Shown piece by piece: positions 4,937-55,479 of a stretch of 58,206 nt of DNA. The notes under the pieces were generated by a model, which saw nothing but the letters and a program-made list of their open reading frames with translations, was not told the DNA's origin and searched no databases. This DNA is from a virus (lineage: Duplodnaviria; Caudoviricetes). Numbering within the stretch: position 1 is the first letter of the stretch; each line of letters begins with the position of its first letter. The stretch is taken from the IMG/VR virus record IMGVR_UViG_3300017744_005100, positions 1-58,206 of that record; one strand, 5' to 3'. The translations under genes and the position numbers were made by a program.

Positions 4937-5439
4937 TCTAAATAACCAGCACGGGCGACAACATAGCTGTCCGCCCGATCATAACTTCCCGGTTTGGGAT
5001 TATTGCTTCTGGTATATTGTACCTCAAAACCATCTACATTGTCAAGCACAAATTTTAGTACGACCTCTTTTGCCTTCTTGCCTCTCTCAACTTTGATGCC
5101 ACAAGACTTTCTTGCTGAGTTGGCTGACATGTATTCTGGCTCTAATCCAAATGTGTTATAACTAAGCCAGCTAACGACACCGTTGAACTTTGAAAGCAAA
5201 GTCAAAACTTTTGCTGATGAAAAGCCCGGTCTAAACATCTGTAAAGATTGCTCAATTACAACCCTCTCAATGTTATAGTCTTTCTTAATAGTGGTTAATT
5301 TATTATCAATGTGAGAAGCTTTTTCAAAAAAGCTTTTAAATTTTCTAGTATCCCAAGACTCACAATAAGCAATGTCGCCGTTGGAATCAATTATAGTAGC
5401 ACCAGTAATACTGGTAGAAACATCTAAACCTAATATCAT
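4915..5439 (-). CDS. RuvC-like Holliday junction resolvase
   Basis: RNase H-fold motifs ILGLDVSTSITG, VVIEQ and DRADSYVVA. Confidence 0.8.
   Translation of the reverse strand: MILGLDVSTSITGATIIDSNGDIAYCESWDTRKFKSFFEKASHIDNKLTTIKKDYNIERVVIEQSLQMFRPGFSSAKVLTLLSKFNGVVSWLSYNTFGLEPEYMSANSARKSCGIKVERGKKAKEVVLKFVLDNVDGFEVQYTRSNNPKPGSYDRADSYVVARAGYLECQKQEK
5016..5045 (-). promoter_or_regulatory. Sigma70-type promoter upstream of primase
   Basis: Minus strand TTGACA-18 nt-TACAAT, inside the resolvase gene, about 80 nt before the primase ATG. Confidence 0.55.
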
Positions 5440-6671
5440 AAATCTAATTTTAACTTAAAAGTATAATCTTGTTCAGCAGTCTTTTTAACAGGGTTGGCAA
5501 CTTTAGCCACAGCGATTAGGTTTCTGTCCTCATCATAAACCCCAACTGTTCTAATATAAGTGGTTGGCTCAAAGCTAGCTGAGTAGGTTGAGAACGAGCT
5601 AGAGACAATATTTTTTACTAAAATATTTTCATTTTCAACATAAGCTTGCGATCCAGTAATTGCTAAATAACTATCCTTGCTATTATCGCCAGTCTGAGTT
5701 AAATAGGTTGGATTATTACTCCAGTTTAACTCGTTCTTTGGTGCATGCGCAAACATTGTAAGAACATCTTTGGGGTGGGACCCTTGAAACTCTAGGGTGT
5801 ATGAAGACCCGGTAATTGGATTACCAGAATTTGCAATCTTTAAATAAGAACCAAAATGGATCCACTTTGAATCATCTAGCACCGGAGTGCCGGAAGCGGC
5901 AAGTGGCTGAATGTAATGTTCTTGACTAGTGTTTAGACTTTCTGTATTAGTAAAAACAATTGCACCCTCTTCATATAAAATAAACCCTGTTACAGTTCCA
6001 GTTCCAATTGATGTATTTATCTGTTCAATTAAACGACCATCCTTACTAGAATCTGTTGCTTTGGCTATTAGCTCACCATTTCTATAGAAACTAGCAGTAA
6101 CTGTGCCGGGGGTTACATAATCCCCATAAAAAGTATTTGGGAAAGTAATAATATTTAAAGACTGTTTTGGACTTACTTTTGAATCTGCTGTGCCTTCTGT
6201 TGTTTCATCTTTATTTTTTGCTGGCAGACCACCATTATTAAAGTATAAATCAAAATCAAATAATTTTGCACTTCCTTTTTTATTATTAATTGCATTTTTA
6301 AAAGATAAAAACTTAAAAATTGTATTTGTGGCTGTGTAGTCGGTATCATAAGTACCACCAGTTTCATAAACAAAATCTCTTGTAATAGTAAATGGTACTA
6401 CCATACTGCCTGTTACAATTTTTGCATCTATATTAATAATACTTCCATTTTCGCTTTTAGACTTTACATAGCCCGTACCAAGATCTGTTGTTATAGTCAA
6501 ATCAGACTCTGGTGTCAAATTTAGGTCTCTATATCTAATAGAGCCTGTTTCATAGAGTCCCGCCTCAGTATCATTATTAATGTACAAGCTACCACTGTAA
6601 AAAGAAAAACGATATTTTGGTCTAGCAATTACAGTATTATTTAAAATGTCATTTTGTTCAAATCTATACAT
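5436..6671 (-). CDS. Virion structural protein (baseplate / tail-fibre attachment type)
   Basis: C-terminus YIRTVGVYDEDRNLIAVAKVANPVKK resembles the tail-collar/fibre-attachment motif; paralogous to 6678-7766. Confidence 0.6.
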   Translation of the reverse strand: MYRFEQNDILNNTVIARPKYRFSFYSGSLYINNDTEAGLYETGSIRYRDLNLTPESDLTITTDLGTGYVKSKSENGSIINIDAKIVTGSMVVPFTITRDFVYETGGTYDTDYTATNTIFKFLSFKNAINNKKGSAKLFDFDLYFNNGGLPAKNKDETTEGTADSKVSPKQSLNIITFPNTFYGDYVTPGTVTASFYRNGELIAKATDSSKDGRLIEQINTSIGTGTVTGFILYEEGAIVFTNTESLNTSQEHYIQPLAASGTPVLDDSKWIHFGSYLKIANSGNPITGSSYTLEFQGSHPKDVLTMFAHAPKNELNWSNNPTYLTQTGDNSKDSYLAITGSQAYVENENILVKNIVSSSFSTYSASFEPTTYIRTVGVYDEDRNLIAVAKVANPVKKTAEQDYTFKLKLDL

Positions 6672-6677
6672 ATCATC

Positions 6678-7766
6678 TTAGTAATCAATTCTCATCTTAA
6701 CATTTATTTCATCTTCTGGTGTCTTTTTAAGTGGTTCACTTAATTTACCAACTGCAAGCAGTTGATTATCGGCAGAGTATAGACCAACAGTAGTAATGTA
6801 TGCAACTGATGGGTTGCCAGCATTACCAGCCTTTACAATAATCTCACTACCGCTTACAAATGATGGGTTGTTACTGTAATTAAACTCGTTGTTTGCTGCT
6901 CTTAAGAAATAAGTTGTTGAATTTAATTCTGTGGTATTATTGAATTGAATATTCTGTATATGGGCACGAGCACCATTTACAATATCATTAATTGAACCAC
7001 TGGTCATCGCATTGGCTGGAGTTAATGCTGTTGTGGTTGCGAAAAAAGAACCACTAGTAAGCTCAGTGCCGAATGTTTGTGTATTAACCGAAAGGAAAAC
7101 CAATCCAGCTTGGTAAAACAAAAATCCGTTTTGAGTAGATGTTGGCACTGTTGCACTAGTACCCTCTTGCAATAGTGCATATTCACCCATCGGTGAATTC
7201 GTCTTATAGGTTTGCTGATTTCCCTCTACCGAATGTGCATCTGAAAATGTCTTGGTCCCGTCGAATGGGTCGGCATATGATCCTGTTCCAATTGTGATTT
7301 GGAATGACCCTTTTTTAATTTCATCTTTCATTAACACTCTAGAGATATCAATAAAAATGCCATCTGAGATTTTATCTGGATCCCAAGTATCGGCTGGATT
7401 TAAAACACCTGATGCATTAAATGGAACTACATTTTGATTTGTGTCATATCCAACATATTGTTGTGCAAATTGTCGATAAATATTATTTTTAAGAGAAGCT
7501 TCAGTGATTGCAGCTACTCCATCACTGTCGCTAGCACGACCTGCTGTCATGCTAAACATGAAGTTAGCTGATGAGCTAGCATGTGGGTAATCATATACAT
7601 CTATATGATCGCCAGTGCTAAAGAACTTAACATTACTCTCAGATGGAAAGGTTCCATAAGTTCCAGAAATAATCGTTCCAGTTACTGGAATTTGTTCGTG
7701 TAAGCTGGCTTTTGAATCGCCAGTATCGTTTAGTCCAAGTGTTTTAAAAACTCCGTTGTTTGCCAT
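6678..7766 (-). CDS. Virion structural protein (paralog of 5436-6671)
   Basis: C-terminus NEFNYSNNPSF...YITTVGLYSADNQLLAVGKLSEPLKK; GGAG RBS. Confidence 0.6.
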   Translation of the reverse strand: MANNGVFKTLGLNDTGDSKASLHEQIPVTGTIISGTYGTFPSESNVKFFSTGDHIDVYDYPHASSSANFMFSMTAGRASDSDGVAAITEASLKNNIYRQFAQQYVGYDTNQNVVPFNASGVLNPADTWDPDKISDGIFIDISRVLMKDEIKKGSFQITIGTGSYADPFDGTKTFSDAHSVEGNQQTYKTNSPMGEYALLQEGTSATVPTSTQNGFLFYQAGLVFLSVNTQTFGTELTSGSFFATTTALTPANAMTSGSINDIVNGARAHIQNIQFNNTTELNSTTYFLRAANNEFNYSNNPSFVSGSEIIVKAGNAGNPSVAYITTVGLYSADNQLLAVGKLSEPLKKTPEDEINVKMRIDY

Positions 7767-7777
7767 AATTTACTCCA

Positions 7778-8776: not shown

Positions 8777-8795
8777 ATTTTACCTCTCCTTCAAG

Positions 8796-8802
8796 TAAAT
8801 AG
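8796..8802 (-). promoter_or_regulatory. Candidate late promoter CTATTTA
   Basis: ACTATTTAC in the only sizeable intergenic gap of the structural module, just upstream of the RBS. Confidence 0.6.
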
Positions 8803-14893: not shown

Positions 14894-15741
14894 TCTTCAC
14901 CATCTTCTTCTTGTAAGGCATTATAAATAGAAATTTCTTTGAAATTACTTTCGAATCTAGCCTCTTCATCAAACAACACATTTAGGTAATTTTCTACAGA
15001 GTCTAGGTCTTCAAAATCTTCTTTATCAAAATATAGTCTTTTTAGAGACTTATTCTTTTCAACATTGCCTTCTGTATCTACTACCTCATATATTTCAACT
15101 TCAAACTCTGGACTCTCCCCAGATGAAAAAACATTTGCCTCTTCAATTGAAAGTAAAAGATCTTCATTCCCTTTATCAAAGTAAAGACTTGAAAGGGTGC
15201 CGCCGCCTTTTATTTTTTGCTGTAATTGGTATAGTTTATACTTTACATTAACATAAAACTGTGGAATTCTTTCTTCGTTTGTGTTCACACCATTTAATGA
15301 AGAGGACGAAATAACAATATTGTTTATATCAGTCGTAATAATCTCAGCTTCAGATGTTGAAAAAACATCACTGGCTGGTAAATATTCCCCTTCGTAAAAC
15401 TGTATTGACCATGCAGGAGCATTTTGAGTTCCAATCTCATATGAGCCAATTGGGTTTTTTAAGTTCATCGAAGGAAGTTCTGTATCGTTCTCTTCAATCA
15501 ATAATTGACCTGGAGTTGTATTTTTCGAAAACAAAGATACTGTTGATTTTTGATATAAGCCATCTTTAATTCTTTCTGAGGAGCTATTCTGATTCTCATT
15601 ATTACTCGCATCATAAATGATTTCTGAATCGTAAAACTCATAAAATGCCGGTTTAAATTTATTTATCGACATTAACTCCCTACCCTTCTTTGTTAGAACA
15701 ACATCTAACACTTCTTCTTTTTTATCAAAAATGTCAGCCAT
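14884..15741 (-). CDS. Virion structural protein (N-terminal paralog of 7778-8776)
   Basis: N-terminus LDVVLTKKGRELMS...FKPAFYEFYDSEIIY. Confidence 0.55.
   Translation of the reverse strand: MADIFDKKEEVLDVVLTKKGRELMSINKFKPAFYEFYDSEIIYDASNNENQNSSSERIKDGLYQKSTVSLFSKNTTPGQLLIEENDTELPSMNLKNPIGSYEIGTQNAPAWSIQFYEGEYLPASDVFSTSEAEIITTDINNIVISSSSLNGVNTNEERIPQFYVNVKYKLYQLQQKIKGGGTLSSLYFDKGNEDLLLSIEEANVFSSGESPEFEVEIYEVVDTEGNVEKNKSLKRLYFDKEDFEDLDSVENYLNVLFDEEARFESNFKEISIYNALQEEDGEECQ
14924..14930 (-). promoter_or_regulatory. Candidate late promoter CTATTTA
   Basis: TCTATTTATA about 30 nt upstream of the ATG at 14893. Confidence 0.5.
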
Positions 15742-37942: not shown

Positions 37943-37943
37943 T

Positions 37944-38945: not shown

Positions 38946-38959
38946 TTTTTTTCCCCGTT

Positions 38960-41321: not shown

Positions 41322-41332
41322 TTTTTTCCTTT

Positions 41333-41863: not shown

Positions 41864-41901
41864 TCTAATTTTACAACTTTACTAATTTTTGGTTATAAGT
41901 A

Positions 41902-42792: not shown

Positions 42793-42800
42793 TTTAAATT

Positions 42801-43718: not shown

Positions 43719-44524
43719 CTCTCTAGAAGGTTATAATCCTTCATCTCTTGTAATTGCTCTTTAATCGTTTTATCTGTTTTTGTTTTTACAAAATTAGAAA
43801 ACAAATCTCTATACACATGGTGTTCTGTATTGTGTTCATTTATTTGTAATTGTAAATTATAAACATCACTTATTTGTTGCAACAATTCATTTTTTGAAAC
43901 AGTATTTTTTGAAAAAAAATGTTTTACACCCTGCCAATAATCATTTTGTAAATTAATTGTTTTTATTACTTTTGCTAATTCTAGGCAGGTCACACCGTTC
44001 CATAAGTGATTTATATATCCATGTACAGATGTTGCTTTTTTTGATTTTGCCCACTCAAGTAATGAGACCTTGTTAAACAATTCCTCACCAATAATTGAAG
44101 TACGAATGATTGTTAAATTAGGATTCTCTCCCAAAGACTTTGTTTTGCCATAGTCATCTAAGCAATCATGTAGGTCATTCTCAGTATATTGTCCTTTATG
44201 CCCACTAAAAACACAATCAGTTGTTATATGAATCACATTACACTGTTTTTTATTTTTAAAATCAGCTAATATATTTGGGAACAAGCTATTAACTTTTATC
44301 ATTTCGAATAAACTAACATCTCTTTGTTTTATAACACCAGCAGCATTAATTATTAAATCTTCTTCTTTTACATGTTTGTTTAAAAAATTTATTATTTCTT
44401 CTTTAGATGATAATGAAATATCCAAGTCTCTTCTTGTGAATTCCACAACCTTATGAGTTTGACCCAAGTAAGAGCTAATGTAGGAGCCAAGCATACCATT
44501 TGATCCAAATAATATTATCTTCAC
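43709..44524 (-). CDS. RmlD-like NDP-4-keto-6-deoxy-sugar reductase
   Basis: GSNGMLG, INAAG, IHITTDCVFSG, DDYGKTKSLGE, IRTSIIG; coupled to the PseB-like dehydratase. Confidence 0.78.
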   Translation of the reverse strand: MKIILFGSNGMLGSYISSYLGQTHKVVEFTRRDLDISLSSKEEIINFLNKHVKEEDLIINAAGVIKQRDVSLFEMIKVNSLFPNILADFKNKKQCNVIHITTDCVFSGHKGQYTENDLHDCLDDYGKTKSLGENPNLTIIRTSIIGEELFNKVSLLEWAKSKKATSVHGYINHLWNGVTCLELAKVIKTINLQNDYWQGVKHFFSKNTVSKNELLQQISDVYNLQLQINEHNTEHHVYRDLFSNFVKTKTDKTIKEQLQEMKDYNLLERCK

Positions 44525-45456
44525 AACTCCTCCTTAAAATAATTGTTTGTTTGCAAGTATTGTTGTAGTTCTTCCATTGTTAAACAGCAGGTGTTTGACG
44601 AATATTCACCACTAGAAAAAGTTACTGTTCTGAATGTCTTTTGAGGGTGCAAAAGATATATTTCTTCATCTTTAATTTCTTCCATTCTGGGTACCTCTTC
44701 CGAAGAAGCCATTATTTCATGGATCTTTTCACCTGTGCGGGGCTCAGTTACTTCATACTTTAAACCAAACTCTTTTCTGTATATTTCAAACAAGTCATGG
44801 ATTTTAAATGATTTAGCCTTTGGTATGATATTGCAGTGACTGTATTTCATAGATTTCAAGACTAGATCTACGGCATGGTCAGCAGAAATTAAAAATCTAG
44901 TCATTTCTGTTCCATAAAGTTGTAACTTTCCATCACTTCTTATTGTTTTCCATATTAATGGTATAATAGAACCAGTTGATGCTGTTACATTGCCATAAAT
45001 TAAAGAGGTTAGATTGCAATTAGACTTTCCGCTAATAAACCCTTCTCCAGCAACAAACTTCATTGCACCGTAAATTGTTGTGGCTCCCCTGCTTTTGTCT
45101 GTTGAAATAAAGCAAGCCGCCTTAAAATTGTTTTCTTCTGCGGCTAGCCGTGAATTAAAAGCACCATCTATAATTATTTTAGATGCCTCTTCATAGTTGT
45201 CATTACATGCTTCTATTTGTTTTAATGATGCTGCAAAAATACCAATGGTGTGACCTTTAGCCTTTCTAATTAAAAAGTCTCTATTTCTAATATCCCCAAT
45301 AATGAAATTAACTTTTGGAAACTGTTTTTTCATATAATAATGTTTTGATTCATCACGAGAATAAACAGTTATTTCATTGTGTTCATACAATCTTTTTACT
45401 AAATTCTTACCTAAAAATCCAGCGCCGCCAGTTATAAATATTTTTTCGCCCTTCAT
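44521..45456 (-). CDS. UDP-GlcNAc 4,6-dehydratase (PseB/FlaA1/CapD family)
   Basis: GGAGFLG, YSRDE.K, GDIRN, FISTDK, YGAMK, YGNV..STGSIIP, MTRF, GEKIHE. Confidence 0.82.
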   Translation of the reverse strand: MKGEKIFITGGAGFLGKNLVKRLYEHNEITVYSRDESKHYYMKKQFPKVNFIIGDIRNRDFLIRKAKGHTIGIFAASLKQIEACNDNYEEASKIIIDGAFNSRLAAEENNFKAACFISTDKSRGATTIYGAMKFVAGEGFISGKSNCNLTSLIYGNVTASTGSIIPLIWKTIRSDGKLQLYGTEMTRFLISADHAVDLVLKSMKYSHCNIIPKAKSFKIHDLFEIYRKEFGLKYEVTEPRTGEKIHEIMASSEEVPRMEEIKDEEIYLLHPQKTFRTVTFSSGEYSSNTCCLTMEELQQYLQTNNYFKEEL

Positions 45457-45465
45457 ATAATTAAC

Positions 45466-46197
45466 CTATTTGTATTTTTCTGTAACTTCCCAGTCACATG
45501 TGAACATTGTATACAAGGCTCTTTCTAACAAGTGAGCCTCTGCTGGGGCAGTGCCAGTTCGATTCCAGCTAATGTACTCCATCATTTTCCTATAAAATTT
45601 CTTACTATATCTTAAAAGTCTATCTTTTGGAATGATATAGTTTCCACCGGGGGAAAAACGAACATATTGGTTTATGTCTGGATTGACATAAACATCTTTA
45701 AAAAAATCATTTAAATTTGAAAAATGTCTCCAAGGTGCATGGTGCATGTACCAGCTATTATTGATTTCTAAAAATCCCCCGTCATGGTCCATCTTACTAG
45801 CTGGTATTGGAGATCCAGCATAAGGGGCATGTGCTTCTATTCCAAAGTCGTGTATTTCTGTAAAAAAATTATTGTTAATAATTTTTAAAAAATGTTGTTC
45901 ACTGCAATTTCCACTAGATAAAGGTTTTTCTCTTCCCTTTGGGAACATTAGACATGCTCTACAAAATGCTGTTACATCTGGTAGATTATTATAATTTTTA
46001 TATGCAAAATAAAAAATATCAAAAATGTTTTGTCCAACATTTATCTGATGTTTTACTTTCTCTGTTTCCTCAAAGCGGTGTGCTCTGTCGTATATGAGAT
46101 AATTGTCTGATAATTTATGCACCCAAGATTCTTCTAAATCTTTTGGAAGCCAATTATAATCACTTACAACTAAAAAATTTGTTTTAACATGCTTCAT
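45466..46197 (-). CDS. DUF3431-like protein, putative glycosyltransferase
   Basis: NVG...YNNLPD...FSPGGNYIIPK...YSKKFY...AHLLER pattern; lies inside the glycan cluster. Confidence 0.55.
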   Translation of the reverse strand: MKHVKTNFLVVSDYNWLPKDLEESWVHKLSDNYLIYDRAHRFEETEKVKHQINVGQNIFDIFYFAYKNYNNLPDVTAFCRACLMFPKGREKPLSSGNCSEQHFLKIINNNFFTEIHDFGIEAHAPYAGSPIPASKMDHDGGFLEINNSWYMHHAPWRHFSNLNDFFKDVYVNPDINQYVRFSPGGNYIIPKDRLLRYSKKFYRKMMEYISWNRTGTAPAEAHLLERALYTMFTCDWEVTEKYK

Positions 46198-46923
46198 CTA
46201 CTTTATAATCCCATAATCATTAAAATTAAATCTTTTTGGATAAGTGCCCGGTAGATAGCGATGAAAACCAAATGGTTTTTTGACAGCCTCTGTTTCTGGG
46301 CATGGTTCTTCATGTGAAAATCTTGCTGCCAACTCTACTGGGGCAAATTTGCAGCCATGTTTTTCAAATAAGTGCTTATTGTGTACACATATGTTACCGT
46401 CTTCGTTATAAGCACCGGCATTCATGTGCTTATAAAAATTTCCCTGGTTGACTTCAAATGGAATATTTTCAATAGAAGGGACATTAAGGAGCTTTTTACT
46501 TCTTAATGTAAAGCCTCCGTTGCCGACCCTCTGGTGATTACCATATGGATCAATAAAAGCATTATCACTTATCTGCCATGGTGCCCCAATATAATCCCAC
46601 TCCAAAAACTCATCAGTCCATGAATCTGCATTTATTACAAAACCATCAGGGTGAATCATAAGCATATAATCAGTGTCTACATGCTCAACTAGTTTGTAGA
46701 TACAGTAATAACTAAATTCTTTATATGTTATGTTTTCAAAGCCTTTAAATTTTTCAAAAACAATACCTTTGGGCATTTTTTTTGGTTCTTTATGAGAAAT
46801 AAACTTTACAGCACCAAAATCAATATGTTTCATACTAACTTGTAATGCTGCTAAGTTTTCTTGAATTTGGGTTGATCCAAGAGCCAACATAGTTACATTC
46901 TGTAATTGTATCTTACTTTTCAT
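46198..46923 (-). CDS. DUF5672-like protein, putative glycosyltransferase
   Basis: HPDGFV, WDYIGAPW, VGNGGFTLRSKK, NEDG, ARFSHE, PFGFH. Confidence 0.7.
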   Translation of the reverse strand: MKSKIQLQNVTMLALGSTQIQENLAALQVSMKHIDFGAVKFISHKEPKKMPKGIVFEKFKGFENITYKEFSYYCIYKLVEHVDTDYMLMIHPDGFVINADSWTDEFLEWDYIGAPWQISDNAFIDPYGNHQRVGNGGFTLRSKKLLNVPSIENIPFEVNQGNFYKHMNAGAYNEDGNICVHNKHLFEKHGCKFAPVELAARFSHEEPCPETEAVKKPFGFHRYLPGTYPKRFNFNDYGIIK

Positions 46924-47602
46924 GCTTTCCTATCGACATGCTTATTTCTTTAGCCTTCCTTTTAGGTGGTATTAAATGTGTCATTTGTTTATCCCATAAT
47001 CTTATTGCAACCGTTTTTTCATTTAAGATTTTAGGTGGACCAAAATTATCATGTAACCTTTTATAGTAATCAATATCAACTGCCCAAATCATTTTTTCAT
47101 CAAACATTAGTAAACTATCATCGTTTCTTACTGATAATACACTCGGGTTACCTATTGTATTATTGCCAGTATAAATTTTTTCGTTATAAACTGGTGTCTC
47201 CTCATTAAAGAAATTTTGTCCATCATGAGTGTGTGCATAGGATGTGACTAACCATTTTGTTTCATCATCAAAGGAGTCTTCAATTTTTTGTAAACTGTTA
47301 TCATCCCATAAAAAATCATCTTGATATAAAATTTTAATTATTTTTCCAGTGCAACGTTGCATTGCCTTGTTTGTGTTAAAAGTAAAATTACCTCTTTTTT
47401 CTCTATTTCTTTCATATTTTACTGTGAAATTATCTGTTTTATAATTTTTGCAAAAATCTTCTATTGCATCAGTTTTACTGTGATCCGAAATAACCACCTC
47501 AAAATTTTTATAAGTTTGAGTTTCAAATTTTTCAAAATGATGACTTAAAAACTCAACCCCTCTTCCAAAGGACTCATACACTGGCATTGCTATTGATATC
47601 AT
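46913..47602 (-). CDS. GT2 family glycosyltransferase
   Basis: ISIAMPVY, EVVISDHS, ILYQDDF, IGNPS. Confidence 0.82.
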   Translation of the reverse strand: MISIAMPVYESFGRGVEFLSHHFEKFETQTYKNFEVVISDHSKTDAIEDFCKNYKTDNFTVKYERNREKRGNFTFNTNKAMQRCTGKIIKILYQDDFLWDDNSLQKIEDSFDDETKWLVTSYAHTHDGQNFFNEETPVYNEKIYTGNNTIGNPSVLSVRNDDSLLMFDEKMIWAVDIDYYKRLHDNFGPPKILNEKTVAIRLWDKQMTHLIPPKRKAKEISMSIGKHEK

Positions 47603-48942
47603 GTTTCCCGCCTGTTATCAAAAAACAACTTAACACAACTGCGGATGTAGTCAATTTGTTCTTCTGTTATTGTTGGTGCTGTACCTAGAAAAAATGTATC
47701 AGATGTAATTTTTCTTGCAGTTGGAAAATCTCTGATGATTTGTTGGGGATCAGCCAAGTGTGTATAGGCTGGTTGCAACATTACATTTCCACCAAAATAA
47801 GTTCTAGTTTGTATTTTCCTGTATTCTAAAAATTTAGTAAACTCAATACGACTAACCCAGGATGTATCCTTTACAGTTAAAGGAAAAGCAAACCAATTTG
47901 GATCTGAGTGTTCAGTGGCGGTAGGAATATGAAAGTGTTCTTCATACTCTAAGAAAATATCTCGTAAAAGATTAAAGTTTCTTTGCCTTTTGCTTTTGAT
48001 TTCTTTAATTTTCCCTATTTGTGTTAGACCAAGAGCCGCTTGTATTTCTATTGGTTTTAGATTATACCCTATTTCTTCATACACATATTTATGATCAAAT
48101 ATTTGGTTTGGTAAGGATGGTAACCAGTTTGAAAACCTCTTTCCACATGCTCCACAAGCAGATACACTTGCTTTTTCACCTACACAGTAACACCCTCGAC
48201 CCCAATCACGGAAGCTTCTAATTGTTCTCTCTTGCTCTAATGTGTTACATGCAATAAACCCACCTTCGCCCATTGTAATGTGGTGTGCAGGATAAAATGA
48301 ACAACTTGCAAAATCACCAAAACTACCTAAAGGCTTTCCTTTATAAGTCGAATCTAAGGCATCACAACAATCCTCCAACATTATCAAGTCATATTGTTTA
48401 ACCAAGTCCATTAGTCTATCCATGTTTGGTGGATTACCTAAAACATGAGCAAAAGTTATCGCTTTAATGTCTGGATCTTTTTTTAAAACATCCTCAACCA
48501 TGTTTAGATCTAAATTTAAAGTCTTCAACTCAATATCGACAAAGACTGGTTCAAATCCAACTTGAAAAATTGGATTAATTGTCGTGGGGAAGCCTGCAAT
48601 CGGAGTTAGTACTTTTGTGCCCTTTGGCAAGTTATACAAGTTTTTTGAAGTCAGCGGCAGCATCATTAACAAGTTGGCACTAGACCCGCTGTTAGTTAAA
48701 ATTCCATGATTTTTATCAAAAAACTTTTTAAACTTTCTTTCAAATTTTGTTCCTTCTTTACCTAAAACAAGCCAACCATTTAAAAGAGTGCTTATTGCAT
48801 TCTTGTACTCTTCTGAATTGTAGTATGGACCAGCATAATGGACCCAATCCTGCCCAGGTCTCCACTCTTTTTTGTTTAATTGTTTATTTTCAATGTATTT
48901 TTCTACAGCTAGTAATATTTCTTTCAAACCAGGATCATTCAT
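47599..48942 (-). CDS. rfbH: NDP-4-keto-6-deoxyhexose 3-dehydrase (RfbH/DdhC, E1)
   Basis: NSGSSANL, AHVLGNP, EDCCDALD, SFYPAHHITMGEGG (His replaces the PLP-binding Lys), Fe-S motif RDWGRGCYC...C...RF, DHKY. Confidence 0.88.
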   Translation of the reverse strand: MNDPGLKEILLAVEKYIENKQLNKKEWRPGQDWVHYAGPYYNSEEYKNAISTLLNGWLVLGKEGTKFERKFKKFFDKNHGILTNSGSSANLLMMLPLTSKNLYNLPKGTKVLTPIAGFPTTINPIFQVGFEPVFVDIELKTLNLDLNMVEDVLKKDPDIKAITFAHVLGNPPNMDRLMDLVKQYDLIMLEDCCDALDSTYKGKPLGSFGDFASCSFYPAHHITMGEGGFIACNTLEQERTIRSFRDWGRGCYCVGEKASVSACGACGKRFSNWLPSLPNQIFDHKYVYEEIGYNLKPIEIQAALGLTQIGKIKEIKSKRQRNFNLLRDIFLEYEEHFHIPTATEHSDPNWFAFPLTVKDTSWVSRIEFTKFLEYRKIQTRTYFGGNVMLQPAYTHLADPQQIIRDFPTARKITSDTFFLGTAPTITEEQIDYIRSCVKLFFDNRRET

Positions 48943-48957
48943 ATGTTTTCATTCCTC

Positions 48958-48974
48958 TAAAGTAAGTTACTTTA
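48958..48974. promoter_or_regulatory. 17-bp perfect palindrome (operator-like) between promoter and RBS of rfbH
   Basis: TAAAGTAA-G-TTACTTTA, abutting the GAGGA RBS. Confidence 0.4.
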
Positions 48975-48992
48975 TAGCCTCCCGCAAATTTT

Positions 48993-49021
48993 ACTATAAC
49001 ATATTTTGCCTTTTTGTTTAA
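48993..49021 (-). promoter_or_regulatory. Sigma70-type promoter with extended -10 upstream of rfbH
   Basis: Minus strand TTAAAC-17 nt-(TGt)TATAGT in the 80-nt intergenic gap. Confidence 0.55.
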
Positions 49022-49022
49022 C

Positions 49023-49694
49023 TTAACCTTCAGCTAGCTTGTTAAAGATTTTATAATATTCTCCAATTATAAATCTTTTTTGAGAGGTTACAGATGATTT
49101 AGATTGCCCGGTATATTTGCTTAATGGCATAACTCTAAAATCAAAAGAAACACGAGTACGGTCTTCTTCATTAACTTTATTCCCGTGCTTGCAGCGGTTG
49201 CCATCAAAAAATACATACTCTCCGTAATTCATCTCCATTGGCGAGAAATCTTCTAACCCTGGTACTGACTCAATCCAAGTTGCTTGGGTTTTTATCATTT
49301 TAGTTAGAGGGACTTGAACATTTATCTCCCATGGAGGATGCTTGTGTATTGGATCTGAATCATAATGCCACTGGTGAATAGCTTTGTAATTTGGGATGTG
49401 TATACGGAATGTTGGAAAAGACTGATAAATAAAATCTTCCTTAAAATACAATGAAATTTCATTTTTTATAAAATCTTCATACGATTCTATAAGACTAGTC
49501 CATGGAGAATTTAGTTTTTTATAGAATAATTCATGAAACTTTGTCCTTGATTCATTTGAAAAATCTAGTTTTTGAGGTGGTAACAAATCTTTGCGATTAA
49601 TATGAAGCAGCGATAAATCATCAACTTCAAATGTTTTTGACACTAATTCAGCAAATCTGTACTTGTCAATATTGTATTGTATTCTTTTATGCAT
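49023..49694 (-). CDS. 2OG-Fe(II) oxygenase (StrG-like)
   Basis: YQSFPTFRIH, WHYDSD (HxD), HGNKVN, TRVSFDFR; probable ATG at 49694. Confidence 0.72.
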   Translation of the reverse strand: MHKRIQYNIDKYRFAELVSKTFEVDDLSLLHINRKDLLPPQKLDFSNESRTKFHELFYKKLNSPWTSLIESYEDFIKNEISLYFKEDFIYQSFPTFRIHIPNYKAIHQWHYDSDPIHKHPPWEINVQVPLTKMIKTQATWIESVPGLEDFSPMEMNYGEYVFFDGNRCKHGNKVNEEDRTRVSFDFRVMPLSKYTGQSKSSVTSQKRFIIGEYYKIFNKLAEG

Positions 49695-49708
49695 GACTAT
49701 TTCTATCC

Positions 49709-50368
49709 TTATTTTTTCCACAATTTGTAATGAGATAGATCTTTATACTTCCAAGACCCACCACAATCTTCATTTTCCTCATTCAGTTCGTTAAACAACA
49801 TGATGCCGCGAGCAGCTTGTTCAGGAGGCATGTACATATTCCACCCATTTATAGTTGGCTCTGGCATTTCATCGTGAGGGACCCTTCGGTCGCGACCTTC
49901 GTATTCTGCTAACTTAAACCATTCAACAGCTTCTTTATCATCGGTAAGAATCATACCGCCTTTAGCAATTGGCAAAATTTTTCTTATATGGAAAGATAAG
50001 CAGTGGTATGTTCCAGGGATGTACATTCCTTTTGTAAATCTTGTAGCTCCATCAATAACAGGATATGGTTCTAGCCTGTAGACACCTGACCATTCTTGGT
50101 CTTCAAAATTAATATCACAACCTGCATGTAATATAAGACCCGGTACTGATAAGTAAGTTTTAGAAGGGATAGTTATCTTTCCTGTGGCTTCTAAATATTT
50201 TAAACTCATAAACATGGCATTGGTACAACTATCACAAGCAACAGCATATTTACTCCCGGCATATGCTGCGACCTTGGTTTCAAATGCTTCTACAACATCC
50301 CACGGATCATTAATTTTAAATCCCTCTTTTTCCAAAACGGGGATTACTTTTTCTAAAGTTTCATACAT
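49709..50368 (-). CDS. Shortened DegT/DnrJ/StrS-family PLP-dependent enzyme (219 aa)
   Basis: FETKVAAYAGSKYAVACDSCTNA, VIDGA, CLSFHIRK..PIAKGGMILTDD, GWNMYM. Confidence 0.75.
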   Translation of the reverse strand: MYETLEKVIPVLEKEGFKINDPWDVVEAFETKVAAYAGSKYAVACDSCTNAMFMSLKYLEATGKITIPSKTYLSVPGLILHAGCDINFEDQEWSGVYRLEPYPVIDGATRFTKGMYIPGTYHCLSFHIRKILPIAKGGMILTDDKEAVEWFKLAEYEGRDRRVPHDEMPEPTINGWNMYMPPEQAARGIMLFNELNEENEDCGGSWKYKDLSHYKLWKK

Positions 50369-50388
50369 TTTTTTCTCTCTTAATTTTT

Positions 50389-51144
50389 TTATTGTTGTTT
50401 AGAAATTCTATCATATTTTATTTTTTGTCGTATTTCTCTTTCTGATGACATTAATTTAATATGATCTACCTTGTCTTCATTTAATGGGTTTGTTCTATTA
50501 TATGATAGCATAATTTTTTCAATATATAAACTTTTTCTACCACACATTTCCAACATGGGAAACATAAATCTCATATCCCATGCACCATCACAAAATTTTC
50601 CTTCCTTGTTGAGAAGATCTTCATATTTAATTTGTTTCCACAACCAATATTTAAAGGTCCTTAAATGAGAGGACATCCACTCTGATTCTCTGAAAGAGTT
50701 GTCATCTATTACCTTTGATGGTACTTGTCTAGAAAATTTACCTCTGTGTTTAGAGGGAAACTCAACATAACTACCGTATGTCATCCAACACTTTTTTTCT
50801 AGATATTGCCTGTTTAGATAATCTAAAACATTATTTCCAAGAAGCCAATCGTCGCCATCTAAAGTTATGACCACATCCTCTTGAGAGGGGTTTGAAAGAA
50901 CAATTGCTTCATAAATGTTTCTCAATGCTAATTTCTTTTCTGTGTTCTTTACTAAAATAAATCTATCATCATTTTTTATAATATTTTCAATAATGTTAAC
51001 ACTACTATCTGTGGACATGTCATCAATTATTATACATTGATAATTTTCATATTCTTGTTTTATAACACTTTTTAAACAATATTTTATCCACTTTTCATTA
51101 TTATAATTTGGAACAATTATTTTAAAATGTGTATTTGTTCTCAT
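50389..51144 (-). CDS. GT2 family glycosyltransferase
   Basis: IIVPNYNNEKWI, IIDDMSTD, LDGDDW. Confidence 0.85.
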   Translation of the reverse strand: MRTNTHFKIIVPNYNNEKWIKYCLKSVIKQEYENYQCIIIDDMSTDSSVNIIENIIKNDDRFILVKNTEKKLALRNIYEAIVLSNPSQEDVVITLDGDDWLLGNNVLDYLNRQYLEKKCWMTYGSYVEFPSKHRGKFSRQVPSKVIDDNSFRESEWMSSHLRTFKYWLWKQIKYEDLLNKEGKFCDGAWDMRFMFPMLEMCGRKSLYIEKIMLSYNRTNPLNEDKVDHIKLMSSEREIRQKIKYDRISKQQ

Positions 51145-52097
51145 TTAAAATCTTCCTTATTGTTTATAGAATTTATTGTATATTCTTTGAGCGAGTCAAA
51201 TAAAGTTTTTCTTGGCGACCATCCCATATCCCACAATTTTTGTCCATTTAATAAAGATAAGGCATGTTGCTTATTATTTGAAGTAGCTACTAATTTATAT
51301 TTCAGCTTCTTTTTTAAAACTTGAGATATCGTCTCAGCTAATCTTAAGTTGTCTGTATATTCTTTAGATACAATATTATATCGTTCCCCAGGAAGACCAT
51401 TTTTTAACAAAAAGTAAATGGCACTGCAAACATCATCGACATGCAAATAGTTTCTAGATAATGCGGTTGTTGATTTTTTATCACAATGTATATCAACTGA
51501 ATTATCATAATTAATACTTTTAATTAATGTAGGGATGTACCTATCATGGCACTGACCTTCTCCAAAAACATTCATAACATAAGTTGTAATTATTGGAAAG
51601 TTGTTTTGTTCTCTATAAAAATCACCCACATCTTCTGCTTGTTTTTTAGATAGTGCATATGGGCTTTTTGGGGTTTTTAAGTCTTGCTCACTAAATCTAT
51701 AATTATTTAATGATGGTCCAAAAACTTCAGCAGTGCTAAAATGTATCATTTTTTCTATAGGAATATTTTTAAAGTGATTGATTAAATTTGTTATAGATAG
51801 AATATTGTTTGAAATATAATCTTCAGGATTTAAAAAACTATTTTTAATATCAGATTTGCCAGCCAGATGCACAATAGATTTTACATCAAGTAATTTTTCA
51901 GCAACTTTGTCCGATATCGGAGAAGTTAAATCATGTTCAACAACTTGAACTCTTTTACTATTAAATTTTCTTTTTAAATCTATACTTTTTTGTAAAGAGA
52001 TTATATTATTGTCTGTATTTTTTATTAAATAATTAATAAAGTTTCTGCCTATAAAACCAGAACCACCAGTCACTAAAATTTTCTTATTATTTTTCAT
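51141..52097 (-). CDS. NAD-dependent sugar epimerase/dehydratase (extended SDR)
   Basis: ILVTGGSGFIG, HLAG, FSTAEVFG, PKSPYALSK, RNYLHVDD. Confidence 0.8.
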   Translation of the reverse strand: MKNNKKILVTGGSGFIGRNFINYLIKNTDNNIISLQKSIDLKRKFNSKRVQVVEHDLTSPISDKVAEKLLDVKSIVHLAGKSDIKNSFLNPEDYISNNILSITNLINHFKNIPIEKMIHFSTAEVFGPSLNNYRFSEQDLKTPKSPYALSKKQAEDVGDFYREQNNFPIITTYVMNVFGEGQCHDRYIPTLIKSINYDNSVDIHCDKKSTTALSRNYLHVDDVCSAIYFLLKNGLPGERYNIVSKEYTDNLRLAETISQVLKKKLKYKLVATSNNKQHALSLLNGQKLWDMGWSPRKTLFDSLKEYTINSINNKEDFK

Positions 52098-52941
52098 GGT
52101 CTTTTATTATGTTCCAAAATTCTACTTTATTATTTTGAATTTTATCCCAAATAGATGTTTTATTTAAGAACCATTTTTCTTGTGAGTGTTGAACATAATC
52201 GTTACAAATTATTTCACACCCCAACAATTTAGCTTCTATAATAGTTCGTGGACATGTATCAAAACCATTTGGTAAAAAGATAAAGCCCTTGGAGGATGCG
52301 AACAAAGACAGCATTTGCTCTCTTGTTAAGTTTTCAAATAATTTAAAATTTAATTTTTTTTCTGTAGCATATTTGATAGAATTTTTAGTCCCCTTGACCC
52401 ATGAATTTGATTTTTGAATTAGCCAAGTATCATTTTTATTGTCTATCTTTTGACTTTTTATTGTGGACATGTCCTTATCACAAAAAGCAGAACTTATTAC
52501 AATATTATTTTTATTTTTTAGTTTCGAAACATTTTTAAGATAATAATTTTTTTGTTGTTCAGACATGAAAAAATTAATTTTTGAGTGAAATAAAAGCAGC
52601 ATATTCGTTTTAATATTTGCTAATAGTGTTTTTTGACAATCACAATTTGAATCAACATGCAATTGTGGCAGTCGGTGTTTGCATATTCTATAATCAAATT
52701 CTAGCAAACAATAATTTATGTTTTTACAAAAATAAAATTTTAATTCATCGCTTAAAAGTGATAGATTTCCTAATATAAATAAATTTTTTTTATTTTGTTG
52801 TAAGTATTCTTTTGTTATTGCCTGACTTTCTTTTTTTTCATGCTGATATGGGCATTTTTCTATCAAGGCTTCAAAAGTAAGCTCTGCACCTCCTTGATAG
52901 TTCCAAAAATCATTAACAAAAATTACTTTCTTACTCATCAT
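52087..52941 (-). CDS. GT-B fold glycosyltransferase
   Basis: GGAELT, WVKG, FIFLPNGFDTCPRTIIEAKLLGC; probable start at 52941 or 52938. Confidence 0.72.
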   Translation of the reverse strand: MMSKKVIFVNDFWNYQGGAELTFEALIEKCPYQHEKKESQAITKEYLQQNKKNLFILGNLSLLSDELKFYFCKNINYCLLEFDYRICKHRLPQLHVDSNCDCQKTLLANIKTNMLLLFHSKINFFMSEQQKNYYLKNVSKLKNKNNIVISSAFCDKDMSTIKSQKIDNKNDTWLIQKSNSWVKGTKNSIKYATEKKLNFKLFENLTREQMLSLFASSKGFIFLPNGFDTCPRTIIEAKLLGCEIICNDYVQHSQEKWFLNKTSIWDKIQNNKVEFWNIIKDHEK

Positions 52942-54220
52942 CGTCAAACAAGTCAGAGAACAGATCATCGATTTCTTTCTTTTCTAAACCAGATTCTAAA
53001 AATCCAGATTTTTCTAAAAAGTCATCATACTTGGCTTGCTGTGTAAATTCTTTTTCTATCCACTTTTTTAGCCGCTTAGCTTCTCCCTGTAAAAGTCCAT
53101 AGTTTTTGACTGCTTCTCTCATAGCTATTTTACAGTTTGATTCTTTAGGATATGCCCAAGACATGTTTGGTTCAATTACACCCTGCCAGAGTACTTCTTT
53201 TTGAACTGGTTCAAGATCATAATTAATTTTACTAAAGTGTGCTCTTAACTTAGATTCGCCCTTCTTATTCTTTTTTGGTGCATACAAAAAGTCTTTTTGC
53301 CCGCCAAAATCATGTGTAATAATAGGCAAGCCAGAATAAGCAGCTTCAAATAGCGGAAGACCAAATCCTTCTCCATGACCAAAATTTATCATTACTTTTA
53401 TTTTTGGATCGACATACAGTGAATGAATTTCTTCCTCAGTCATATACCCATGAAGAAGGTAAACTTTACACTTTTTATCAGGAAAATTATTGGAGATTTG
53501 TTTAATTGTGCTATTAATAAATGCTCTGTCTATTCTACTATTTCCTTTAGCAAAAGTTTTTACCACCAATCCTACATCTTCATTATCATGAAATTCCTCA
53601 CAAAACCAAGTAATCATATTTGGCAAATTCTTTCTAGGTCCCCACTGAGCCATGGCTAAAAAGTTAAAATCTGTATCTAACTGAAGATCTAAATTTTTTA
53701 CCTCAACTTTTTTAACTGGATAGTGGACCACTTCAATTGGTTTTTGTAAAACAAATTCTATTTCATTTCCATTCTGATCATGTACTTTAATTGGTGTTTG
53801 CAAACCAGCTTTTGCATGTTCTGATATTACTAAAATTTTATCTGCAAACTGATGGCATTTTGCAATCCACTCTTCACAAGCCCTATCAGTTTCAATCCCA
53901 GCAGTGTAGAGAACATTTTTTTGTGCTATTCTATGTAACTCATTTGGTATTGTTACTTGAAGTGATACATCGAACAAGGACACTTGTGGATTTTGATTTT
54001 GTTCATCTAGCATTGGTTTTGCTTTGATAATCAGTTCGTCGATCCATCTTCTTTCTTCACTATCATCAAAGATCCAATTTGTTCCTCCCCATGGTATATT
54101 TAAAAGATAAATATCGAACAAATCCTCTCTTGATCTTAAAGCTCTTAATGCAAAGCGGCATTGTTCGCCATACCCTGTTTGTGATAATGCGGGTCCTCTT
54201 ACTAATATTTTATACTTCAT
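52931..54220 (-). CDS. GT4-like glycosyltransferase
   Basis: GPALSQTGYG, QWGPRKN, GEGFGLPLFEAAYSGLPII. Confidence 0.85.
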   Translation of the reverse strand: MKYKILVRGPALSQTGYGEQCRFALRALRSREDLFDIYLLNIPWGGTNWIFDDSEERRWIDELIIKAKPMLDEQNQNPQVSLFDVSLQVTIPNELHRIAQKNVLYTAGIETDRACEEWIAKCHQFADKILVISEHAKAGLQTPIKVHDQNGNEIEFVLQKPIEVVHYPVKKVEVKNLDLQLDTDFNFLAMAQWGPRKNLPNMITWFCEEFHDNEDVGLVVKTFAKGNSRIDRAFINSTIKQISNNFPDKKCKVYLLHGYMTEEEIHSLYVDPKIKVMINFGHGEGFGLPLFEAAYSGLPIITHDFGGQKDFLYAPKKNKKGESKLRAHFSKINYDLEPVQKEVLWQGVIEPNMSWAYPKESNCKIAMREAVKNYGLLQGEAKRLKKWIEKEFTQQAKYDDFLEKSGFLESGLEKKEIDDLFSDLFDDDE

Positions 54221-55479
54221 TTTATTTCTTCCAATGTCCAGTTTTGTTTTTTATTTCGTGTTTCCCATGAGCCATATTTTTTATGCACATTAGTAAAGAT
54301 TTCATCCCAAGACTTTATAAAATTGTCAAAATTGTAATTTTTCTCTACATGCTTGCGACCTTTAAGTCCCATCTTCTTTCTATCTTCAGGAGATTTGTGA
54401 TACATCTCTAAAAGAGCTTCTACAAATTTTTCTTTTGACAATCTGTCCTCATAGATAAATGGAACTTCTTGAGAACCCACAACTGTTTTACTGACCGGTT
54501 CTAATCCATATCCAAACCAATCTTTGCCATCTGTAACCTGTTCTTGAAGACCACCTGTCATGTTAACAATAATTGGTGTTCCACAAGACAACGATTCTAA
54601 AGTTCCAAGTCCAAAACCCTCAGCATCAGAAATGTTTACTGTACAATCTACCATGTTGTACATGGCAGCTAAATTTACTGGTGGTAGTTTTTCTTTGGAA
54701 AAAAGCACTTGTCCATCGTTTAATCCAAGTTCTACCAATAAAGCTTCTAAGTTTGACCCAGCTTGATCGCGAGGATTGGTGTGCATCAACAAAATAGCCT
54801 TATCGTCGCCCACTTTATCTAAGAAATCCTTAAACCATAAGATTAAAGTAGCTCCCATTTTTCTACGGGCATTTCTATTGTTCCAAAAAACAACAAACTT
54901 ATCTTTATTCTCTTTAAAATTATCTGCTCTAAGTTTACTTACATTTTCATCCTCTAAAGGTTTAAAAACATCTAAGTTAACAGCATGTGGAACATACTGT
55001 CTGTCTACATCTGGAGACACATTAGCTACAATATCATCTGTAACCTTAGAGATCGTAGCAATGAAGTCATTACTATCATAGTATGGTTTATTATAAGTTG
55101 GATAAGGATAATTGTCCCAAACATGATAATAGATCATTGGTACATTATATCTTACCTCTTCTTCCATTTCCCACAACCAACCCCAAAATCTAGGATCGGT
55201 CATAAACCAAACAATATCTGGCTTTTCAGACCAAAGCAAGGCTCTGACTGCTTCTTGTGTGCCATAACCATCTGTGGGGACAATAATCCAGTCGTCTCCG
55301 AACTCTTCTGTCTTAATCGGGCGATAGTCTTCATGCTTGATCAAGCCACCAAAAGAAATAAACTGGTACTTACCAGTTCTAAGCATGCCTTCAATAATAT
55401 ATCGTGTTTGAGTTCCAACCCCTGATGGTGTAAGTGGGTGGTCACTCAAAGTAAAAATTTTAATTTTTTTGTCTGTCAT
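54217..55479 (-). CDS. GT4-like glycosyltransferase
   Basis: SDHPLTPSGVG, NNRNARRK, AEGFGLGTLESLSCGTPII; ATG at 55479 (ATGA overlap). Confidence 0.85.
   Translation of the reverse strand: MTDKKIKIFTLSDHPLTPSGVGTQTRYIIEGMLRTGKYQFISFGGLIKHEDYRPIKTEEFGDDWIIVPTDGYGTQEAVRALLWSEKPDIVWFMTDPRFWGWLWEMEEEVRYNVPMIYYHVWDNYPYPTYNKPYYDSNDFIATISKVTDDIVANVSPDVDRQYVPHAVNLDVFKPLEDENVSKLRADNFKENKDKFVVFWNNRNARRKMGATLILWFKDFLDKVGDDKAILLMHTNPRDQAGSNLEALLVELGLNDGQVLFSKEKLPPVNLAAMYNMVDCTVNISDAEGFGLGTLESLSCGTPIIVNMTGGLQEQVTDGKDWFGYGLEPVSKTVVGSQEVPFIYEDRLSKEKFVEALLEMYHKSPEDRKKMGLKGRKHVEKNYNFDNFIKSWDEIFTNVHKKYGSWETRNKKQNWTLEEIK

Follow-up and report, generated by a model that had tools for sequence, protein, structure and literature searches.

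A serine tripeptide enriched in the outer tail proteins of a clade of marine myoviruses as a candidate sequon for phage-encoded O-glycosylation

The virus record IMGVR_UViG_3300017744_005100 (Duplodnaviria; Caudoviricetes) is a fragment of a low-GC phage genome (30-38% guanine plus cytosine), and the entire record, 58,206 bases long and with all its genes on the minus strand, is referred to here as the window. Four of the tail and baseplate proteins that it encodes, of 488, 2700, 411 and 362 amino acids (aa), are rich in a short serine motif (Table 1). The over-representation of this motif is real and its excess is carried by [ST]-G-S, for which we see about an even chance that it is the sequon of a phage-encoded O-glycosylation of exposed tail proteins. 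The most economical account of the data is that the motif is recognised in trans by a clade-specific enzyme, the obvious candidate being a tandem pair of GT4-family glycosyltransferases (GTs), GT4a and GT4b, and GT4b especially. Recognition in trans is suggested by a serine-strict motif lying in unrelated contexts and in turns of the outer virion, by a number of sites that is kept while their positions turn over, by the restriction of the motif to one clade and by its absence from LR756508, a phage lacking GT4b. Modification of the motif as such, its nature as a glycan, the residue to which it is attached and the initiating enzyme are all inferred from this pattern and not observed.

The original prediction had proposed [ST]-[GAS]-S as acceptor motif from hand counts of 12, 28, 8 and 5 in the four proteins, and these counts proved exact. 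Each of the 45 minus-strand open reading frames (ORFs) of the window was compared with 2000 composition-preserving shuffles, and the expected enrichment was found: the 488-aa protein contains 12 copies against a shuffled mean of 2.61 (z 6.0), the 2700-aa protein 28 against 9.83 (z 5.9) and the 411-aa protein 8 against 1.61 (z 5.2), while the 5 copies of the 362-aa protein against 1.86 (z 2.3, p 0.044) are weak alone. All five peptides given as examples (FYSGSL, YETGSI, YLTGSG, IYSASI and LFTGSA) are present, and the low counts claimed for other large proteins were recovered, with no copy in the Mre11-Rad50 protein and a single one in each of the gp6-like, 1276-aa and 1444-aa proteins. The signal proved narrower than the motif as first written. 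In the four proteins pooled (3961 aa) there are 31 [ST]GS against about 4.8 expected, made up of 18 TGS (2.2 expected, z 10.4) and 13 SGS (2.6 expected, z 6.9), which occupy ranks 1 and 2 of 1966 tripeptides, whereas [ST][AS]S is up only about 2-fold (22 against 11-12, a count that 2-10 of 2000 local shuffles attain). The 2700-aa protein holds 15 of the [ST]GS sites and the 488-aa protein seven, at residues 27, 77, 147, 184, 278, 343 and 429. In ten other structural proteins (6107 aa) none of the six tripeptides that make up the motif exceeds expectation.

Composition or local clustering of Ser, Thr and Gly was rejected as the origin of the excess by these global shuffles and by local ones in windows of 10, 20 and 40 residues, which give 5.5-6.1 [ST]GS (6.1 with the 10-residue window) and of which none in 2000 reaches 31. 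Even in the 362-aa protein the 4 [ST]GS sites, against about 0.7 expected, are reached by 6-11 of 2000 local shuffles. A motif at the DNA level was also rejected, as the distinct codons found among the 31 sites number 7, 4 and 6 at the first, second and third position, which indicates that selection acts on the protein. Post-hoc choice of the motif was rejected by unbiased scans of all tripeptides.

Residue profiles were drawn from protein sets chosen for [ST]GS excess and thus only the remaining values of the profile are informative. The first position is exclusively Ser or Thr and the middle one Gly, with Ala enriched 2-4-fold though the sets were not selected for it; Gly, Ala and Ser swap at the same alignment columns in the families of the 488- and 2700-aa proteins. 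The third position is strictly Ser, with Thr, Asn and Asp at expectation. Over 264 sites in 37 proteins the flanks favour Ile, Val or Phe at -1 (2.1-2.4 times expectation), Tyr at -2, Leu, Ile or Phe at +1 and Gly at -5, and avoid charge at -1 and +1 and Pro at +1.

An origin of the motif in domain repeats or in paralogous proteins was tried and rejected. The 411- and 362-aa proteins are the sole paralogues among the four, with 26% identity over the C-terminal ~200 aa by BLAST, which found no similarity between the 488- and 2700-aa proteins and no self-matches in any of the four. With the motif masked, the flanks of 20 residues on either side of the 31 sites resemble one another no more than random Ser/Thr-centred windows do (17.30 against 17.57 +/- 0.30). 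Alignment of segments of the 488-aa family with hhalign gave a probability below 1% in all 15 pairs, and 22 enriched proteins from three relatives have no Pfam domain in common. This rejection extends down to the reach of hhalign, below which homology may still exist.

Homologues of the 488-aa protein number more than 5000 in marine metagenomes, and a collection of cultured phages gave no match to the region of its gene by blastn or tblastn. Every one of the 120 homologues listed has 5-10 [ST]GS, where about 1 would be expected. Each of the seven sites of the window protein is conserved in 69-106 of 110 aligned sequences, and other columns of the alignment hold the motif in just 26-36 sequences. 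In the first 1000 residues of the 2700-aa family (34 sequences) there are 5-14 sites per protein spread over ~25 columns, with only two columns near fixation (33/34 and 28/34), indicating that the number of sites is maintained while their positions turn over. In a tally of 79 related loci, whose sequences are related and whose counts are not independent, the 2700-aa family has 1074 [ST]GS against 224.9 expected and the 488-aa family 517 against 75.7, and the unmatched ORFs have 66 against 70.7. The families of the inner baseplate wedge contrast with these, with 6 against 32.8 expected over 78 ORFs for gp6 and none against 3.8 for gp25. The gp6 deficit may reflect avoidance of the motif in an inner baseplate protein, in a small effective sample of related sequences.

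The portal protein ties the group to the cultured Flavobacterium phage immuto, Microcystis phage Mel-JY01 and Rhodothermus phage RM378, and relatives were reached via this protein and GT4a. The C-terminal ~100-aa domain of the 411-aa protein is common to several proteins of these three phages. In G001, a marine relative of 185 kb with a CheckV-estimated completeness of 100%, the enriched proteins are the orthologues of the four window proteins, a repeated protein of 1056 aa and the 968-aa tail sheath. All ten sites of this sheath lie in its N-terminal extension, at residues 142-605, ahead of the conserved sheath core (682-960), and all seven of its distant immuto orthologue at residues 62-275, the core being at 431-701. 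The expectation of a glycan on exposed baseplate proteins is partly supported, with the qualification that in the relatives the motif also populates the outer portion of the sheath as well as proteins of fibres or spikes; inner or non-virion proteins are without excess. The 1056-aa protein of G001 (113252-116422; L085:13252-16422), encoded beside the head genes, has three internal repeats with two [ST]GS each in the same register (...SGSAxxHST... and ...V/C-SGSxxLG...) and matches no Pfam family; it may be a head or neck fibre.

The distribution of the motif across genomes follows that of GT4b (Table 2). Tripeptides were scanned in all ORFs of each genome with no prior selection, and an ORF was taken as enriched when its [ST]GS excess over composition reached a Poisson p<1e-3. 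The absence of GT4 rests on a PF00534 search for T4, Syn9, HTVC008M and SPO1 and on the record annotation for FCL-2, in which no glycosyltransferase is listed; the FCL-2 figures rest on listed ORFs of at least 300 aa. Both SGS and TGS are within the top 9 tripeptides genome-wide in all five genomes that have GT4a and GT4b, and the best rank reached in the six genomes without GT4b is 25. Phages without glycosyltransferases had been expected to lack the motif, and none of the five without GT4 contains an enriched ORF; the same is true for LR756508, which lacks only GT4b. An effect of the host phylum was rejected because the Flavobacterium myovirus FCL-2 and the cyanophage Syn9 show no excess. 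In HTVC008M two large structural proteins (37918-43923 and 46673-49735; L141-L142) have a mild [ST]GS excess of 9 against 3.1 and 9 against 3.2.

Table 2. Occurrence of the GT4 genes and of the [ST]GS motif in the window and ten phage genomes.
Genome	GT4 genes	[ST]GS observed	[ST]GS expected	ORFs with p<1e-3	Rank of SGS	Rank of TGS	Tripeptides ranked
Window	GT4a + GT4b				9	1	3616
G001	GT4a + GT4b	112	42	5	1	2	6343
immuto	GT4a + GT4b	117	46.3	5	1	3	5560
Mel-JY01	GT4a + GT4b	106	37.5	7	4	8	6241
RM378	GT4a + GT4b	51	18.3	2	3	8	5460
LR756508	GT4a only	106	77.1	0	187	837	7300
T4	no GT4	19	27.4	0	3316	5920	5995
Syn9	no GT4	59	50.1	0	1371	1023	6007
HTVC008M	no GT4	55	36.3	0	25	2417	5626
SPO1	no GT4	20	21.5	0	4170	1346	5079
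FCL-2	no GT4	7	6.2	0	419	1671	2441

LR756508 is an uncultured 484-kb phage that shares the synteny of a PD-(D/E)XK nuclease gene, GT4a and a sugar island, the latter with GT29, GT25, GT10 and sulfotransferases. A separate GT4b gene was not found in it by profile search, and translation with tables 4 and 15 gave no longer longest ORFs, by which an alternative genetic code was rejected. In TerL and sheath trees, with the outgroup on the T4-like side, it is nested among members that have the GT4 pair and the motif; the support of the clade is 100/100, with weaker internal branches and, in the sheath tree, a long branch for RM378. Its two tandem sheath paralogues of 824 aa contain no site. The presence of a sugar island without the motif in this phage means that there is no tie between the motif and the island taken as a unit.

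The placement of the sites was analysed in AlphaFold2 models of the full 488-aa protein (predicted local distance difference test score, pLDDT, 69) and of the first 1000 residues of the 2700-aa protein (pLDDT 73). The former is a chain of beta-sandwich domains that Foldseek matches only to generic Ig, FN3 and macroglobulin-like folds, and the latter contains the LamG domain. Exposed turns had been expected, and as regards turns all 16 modelled [ST]GS sites (seven in the 488-aa protein and nine in the fragment) are in loops; two are exact 3-residue connectors of beta-hairpins, and several directly flank a strand. One site of the 2700-aa protein falls within the conserved C-terminal motif region of its LamG domain.

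Part of what weighs against a sequon is also what favours its main rival, by which [ST]GS would be a lineage-specific tight turn or beta-arc of beta-sandwich and fibre domains, a trace of ancient decayed homology that stays unmodified while the GT island acts elsewhere, for example on host envelope glycans. We regard this explanation as possible, if somewhat doubtful. The location of all modelled sites in turns or loops, with two exact 3-residue hairpins, is what it predicts, and Gly is found in loops anyway (34/39 and 51/71 Gly residues in the two models), Gly and Ser being loop formers. The hydrophobic flanks on both sides and the avoidance of Pro and charge match the expectation for a tight beta-turn or beta-arc, the seven sites of the 488-aa family are positionally conserved, and one site is inside a conserved region of the LamG domain. 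LR756508 points the same way, since it keeps GT4a and a rich sugar island yet has no motif excess. However, turn preferences are universal, yet T4, Syn9, SPO1 and FCL-2 show no excess. Furthermore, [ST]G[TND] is not enriched though Thr, Asn and Asp suit the same turns, and [ST]AS is enriched though Ala disfavours the Gly-type conformation. The sites are not linked by sequence or profile similarity, they turn over while their number stays 4-7 times expectation, and the sheath extensions of LR756508, orthologous to those that are filled with the motif in the relatives and found in a phage without GT4b, have no sites at all.

The remaining points that weigh against O-glycosylation concern the breadth and independence of the evidence. 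Two or three of the seven sites in the 488-aa model are within stretches of pLDDT below 50. The 1276-aa and 746-aa proteins, which are large and encoded in the tail module too, have 1 and 0 sites, and neither the capsid-region ORFs of G001 and immuto nor the major capsid proteins of relatives are enriched. The remaining proteins of the clade genomes are not depleted in the motif, being at ~1.3-2 times expectation, and HTVC008M, without GT4, has the mild genome-wide excess given in Table 2. The five positive genomes form one clade with a single negative within it, so that the correlation is phylogenetically confounded; the link between motif and glycosylation in the original prediction rests on a correlation that contains in essence a single independent loss and is partly supported. 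In an abstract-level look at the literature we found no report of a glycan, a mass shift or a staining for virions of this clade, or of this motif.

A second alternative retains recognition in trans and assigns it to another clade-wide factor, which would phosphorylate, acylate or phosphoglycosylate the Ser or act in assembly or folding, the GT4 pair being merely a co-inherited marker. It has in its favour that so short and sharp a motif, found in contexts that are unrelated, speaks for a factor acting in trans, that the link to GT4b is only a correlation, over 11 genomes, and that the islands of relatives contain sulfotransferase-like, methyltransferase, carbamoyltransferase and acetyltransferase genes. 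We consider it unlikely, as neither a kinase nor any other enzyme of protein modification turned up in the window and the conserved candidates near the structural module are the GT4 pair and the adjoining 293-aa protein, within a comparison that stops short of a full clade-wide set of core genes. An origin of the enrichment in composition, low complexity, a DNA motif or the choice of motif after the sequence had been seen, in four proteins that are indeed rich in Ser, Thr and Gly, is refuted by the global and local shuffles, the unbiased scans (TGS first of 3616 in the window, SGS and TGS first and second of 6343 in G001), the diverse codons and the 120/120 homologues with excess, and can be set aside almost entirely.

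Both candidate enzymes bear the marks of their family. The EX7E motif in the C-terminal Rossmann domain is a signature of GT4, and it is intact as E-G-[FWY]-G-x4-E in all three GT4a and all seven GT4b sequences aligned. The best match of both among proteins of solved structure is B736L, a chlorovirus GT4 (PDB 3oy2), with E 1.3e-7 for GT4a and E 0.02 for the more divergent GT4b. Orthologues of GT4a are found in all clade genomes examined and homologues of GT4b number at least 5887 in metagenomes. The tandem pair is present in five of five large marine relatives as well as in immuto and Mel-JY01, and profile search detected GT4b in G001, immuto, Mel-JY01 and RM378, the RM378 copy being divergent and directly after GT4a (E 9.4e-11). 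In Mel-JY01 GT4b is intact and the motif strong despite a split GT4a. That orthologue (83441-84932) is distributed over two adjacent ORFs in different frames (190 and 302 aa), divided between the Rossmann halves, which could be a frameshift, a sequencing error or a truly split enzyme. The GT4b of some marine relatives continues into a fused GT2 domain at the C-terminus (~660 aa; P0141, P0147, P0153 and others), and in one cluster (P0158) GT4b is joined to a region with a sub-threshold MptE-like (Maf-like) match. Weak, independent GT4 matches occur in phiPsal1, S-CBS4, Mae-JY09 and MT835496.

The 293-aa protein adjoining the pair is probably a short third GT-B-like protein. It belongs to virus-only clusters of the ESM Atlas, some of the proteins structurally close to it carry a fused GT2, GT4 or GT9 domain, and its G001 counterpart (292 aa) has a weak Glyco_transf_4 match. 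A Maf/MptE-like nature was rejected, for it has no similarity to the C-terminal part of P0158, which is itself below the cut-off for MptE-like proteins.

Behind the GT4 pair the gene content of the sugar island differs in every relative examined (G001-G005 and immuto), and likewise in LR756508, and the order of PD-(D/E)XK nuclease and GT4 genes is kept down to ~30% identity. The island of the window has Rml-type, PseB-like, GT11 and GT17 genes; those of G001 and G005 have GT10, sulfotransferase-like and methyltransferase genes, that of G004 carbamoyltransferase, transketolase-like and aldo-keto reductase genes, that of G003 a UDP-GlcNAc 2-epimerase and a GNAT acetyltransferase, and that of G002 aldolase, transaldolase and cytidylyltransferase genes. 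It had been proposed to check whether relatives with different glycosyltransferase sets use a different tripeptide, and no such change was seen, as relatives with other sugar genes keep both [ST]GS and the same GT4 pair. The constancy of motif and pair in spite of different sugar genes fits conserved initiating enzymes with variable elongation.

We propose that phi-[S/T]-[G>A>S]-S-phi, where phi is a hydrophobic residue, may act as an acceptor sequon at surface turns of peripheral virion proteins, the acceptors being the 488-, 2700-, 411- and 362-aa proteins in the window phage and, in relatives, outer sheath domains together with fibres or spikes. The conserved soluble GT4 pair would start the glycan on folded or folding tail proteins in the cytoplasm, late in infection. 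In this mechanism GT4b is the stronger candidate for the enzyme that recognises the motif, probably with specificity for Ser, and it may be aided by the 293-aa protein. The hypervariable genes would make unusual nucleotide sugars and extend the glycan, leading to a coat that is particular to the phage lineage. It is conceivable, though we would not expect it on present data, that thousands of uncultured marine myoviruses coat their sheath, baseplate periphery and fibres in this way, with a lineage-specific O-glycan added at [S/T]-G-S via a Ser-specific GT4b and with the sugar island setting the 'glycotype'.

Virion glycosylation is established for giant viruses and a few mycobacteriophages, and we know of no acceptor sequon for any phage; if the proposal is true, [ST]GS would be the first O-glycosylation sequon to be defined for a bacterial virus, and the glycotype would shape adsorption, host range or escape from recognition by the host or the environment. 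The usual interpretation of the islands of sugar genes in marine phages is that they serve the host surface or DNA modification, and these widespread 'auxiliary' genes would be reassigned to the decoration of the particle. The [ST]GS excess together with GT4b would then be a marker, readable from sequence, that predicts both the modified proteins and the modified residues, and the prediction can be tested in three cultured phages, immuto, Mel-JY01 and RM378. Even if the motif is purely structural, a clade-wide tripeptide bias that tops the genome and is confined to outer tail proteins needs explaining.

Among known systems, chloroviruses glycosylate their capsid by means of virus-encoded cytoplasmic glycosyltransferases, with glycans N-linked to the capsid protein. 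The system proposed here resembles this one in its soluble virus-encoded machinery, in having no membrane export step and in the match of the GT4s to B736L; unlike in chloroviruses, a Ser O-linkage on tail proteins is proposed here, and the similarity to B736L is weak and limited to the C-terminal half of the GT-B fold. Adhesins of Gram-positive bacteria are O-glycosylated by tandem GT4 enzymes, GtfA/GtfB acting on serine-rich repeats and SdgA/SdgB on Ser-Asp repeats, and of the first pair GtfB is non-catalytic. With these the proposed phage system has in common two adjacent GT4-type genes, a cytoplasmic action and Ser acceptors in contexts of small residues, such as S-A-S. Membership of the GtfA/GtfB family was rejected, as no NCBIfam GtfA or GtfB model matched. 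Both phage GT4s keep EX7E, unlike GtfB, and the putative acceptors are isolated turns in folded beta domains and not long low-complexity repeats. The island in turn is similar to O-antigen and capsule clusters and to the 'LPS gene' (lipopolysaccharide) islands of marine phages in its hypervariable Rml, PseB-like, DegT, GT2 and GT11 genes, which differ between close relatives. It is unlike O-antigen and capsule clusters in that the window has no membrane initiating transferase, flippase, polymerase, ligase, ABC transporter or transmembrane segments and in that one and the same GT4 pair always opens the island, both in the marine relatives and in immuto.

A phage precedent is the O-glycosylation of mycobacteriophage virions (Freeman et al. 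2023, Cell Host Microbe, as cited in PMC12619734), in which, according to the account in PMC12619734, the glycans are at the C-termini of capsid and tail-tube subunits. As far as that account describes it, the two systems are alike in that phage-encoded glycosyltransferases are proposed to decorate the virion proteins of the phage itself, and they differ in that the candidate sites here are a dispersed tripeptide in sheath extensions, baseplate and fibre proteins. The phages differ as well, those considered here being marine or aquatic myoviruses related to RM378, immuto and Mel-JY01. Glycosylation of DNA by viral glycosyltransferases is also on record (Pyle 2024, as cited in PMC12619734). The pyrimidine hydroxymethylase of the ThyA family (PF00303), expected for DNA glycosylation of the T4 type as the maker of the acceptor base, is absent in the three near-complete marine relatives and present in immuto and LR756508. 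In LR756508 a thymidylate-synthase-family gene lies directly upstream of the PD-(D/E)XK nuclease gene, a DprA-like gene and GT4a, this locus and the tandem sheath paralogues being at 202463-208426 and 302641-306748 (L161-L185).

Table 1. Features of the window on which the analysis is based.
Feature	Coordinates	Strand	Remarks
488-aa baseplate-module protein	23830..25296	-	Gene right after the gp25-like and gp6-like genes
2700-aa peripheral baseplate or fibre protein	15741..23843	-	LamG/ConA-like domain at residues 166-331
411-aa tail or baseplate protein	5436..6671	-	5 [ST]GS (8 of the wider motif); paralogue of the 362-aa protein
362-aa paralogue of the 411-aa protein	6678..7766	-	4 [ST]GS (5 of the wider motif)
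Inner baseplate wedge, gp6-like (596 aa) and gp25-like (129 aa)	25296..27475	-	Motif-poor contrast; gp6-like ORF at 25296-27086
GT4a, 422 aa, GT4-family glycosyltransferase	54217..55485	-	PF00534 50.1 bits (cut-off 26.4); first gene of the pair
GT4b, 429 aa, divergent GT4-family glycosyltransferase	52931..54220	-	PF00534 28.2 bits (cut-off 26.4)
293-aa conserved protein adjoining the GT4 pair	52087..52968	-	No Pfam family at E 0.001
Variable sugar island	37408..52097	-	RmlB/C/D-like, PseB-like dehydratase, RfbH/DegT aminotransferases, short-chain dehydrogenases, 2-oxoglutarate (2OG) oxygenase, two GT2, DUF5672, DUF3431, GT17, GT11, GT11-like protein, cupin

In the order of transcription the window starts with a PhoH-PIN protein, the PD-(D/E)XK nuclease, the two GT4s and the 293-aa protein, followed by ~17 sugar-pathway and glycosyltransferase genes and a late-sigma-like protein. 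The baseplate and tail module encodes, in order, proteins of 802 aa, 312 aa, 1444 aa (hub-like) and 185 aa, the gp25-like and gp6-like proteins, and proteins of 488, 2700, 285, 746, 1276, 332, 362 and 411 aa. RuvC-like, primase-like and fused Mre11-Rad50 proteins come last.

The window had been credited with about nine glycosyltransferase-like genes, seven of which pass the Pfam cut-off (one GT11, GT17, two GT2, DUF5672 and the two GT4), with two more, the 305-aa GT11-like protein and DUF3431, marginal and below it. The claim that export and polymerase genes are absent from the window agrees with our searches: no Pfam or NCBIfam family for an initiating membrane phosphoglycosyltransferase, flippase, polymerase, ligase or ABC transporter was found in this partial genome, in the rest of which such genes may lie, and none of the 20 island proteins of the window has a transmembrane-like segment. 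Some island genes look partial and could be split, decaying or minimal domains: a 219-aa DegT-like ORF (49709-50368, minus strand) whose best match covers only profile positions 24-92 (two matched stretches), a 235-aa RmlD-like ORF (39733-40440, minus strand) that spans only the first half of the profile, and a 124-aa cupin (37408-37782, minus strand) corresponding to only the C-terminal domain of GMP/PMI enzymes.

Outside the island and the tail module, a 221-aa ORF (56266-56931, minus strand) overlaps the PD-(D/E)XK nuclease gene by 65 bases, and its weak Pfam match to an ATLF metalloprotease-like family (E 0.001; 19.3 bits against a cut-off of 27.4) is probably not meaningful. The 1051-aa protein encoded at 831-3986 (minus strand) fuses an Mre11-like phosphoesterase (residues 1-221) with a Rad50/SMC-like ATPase (residues 367-1044). 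G001 encodes at 133144-136299 a protein that is also exactly 1051 aa long and may be the homologue of Mre11-Rad50.

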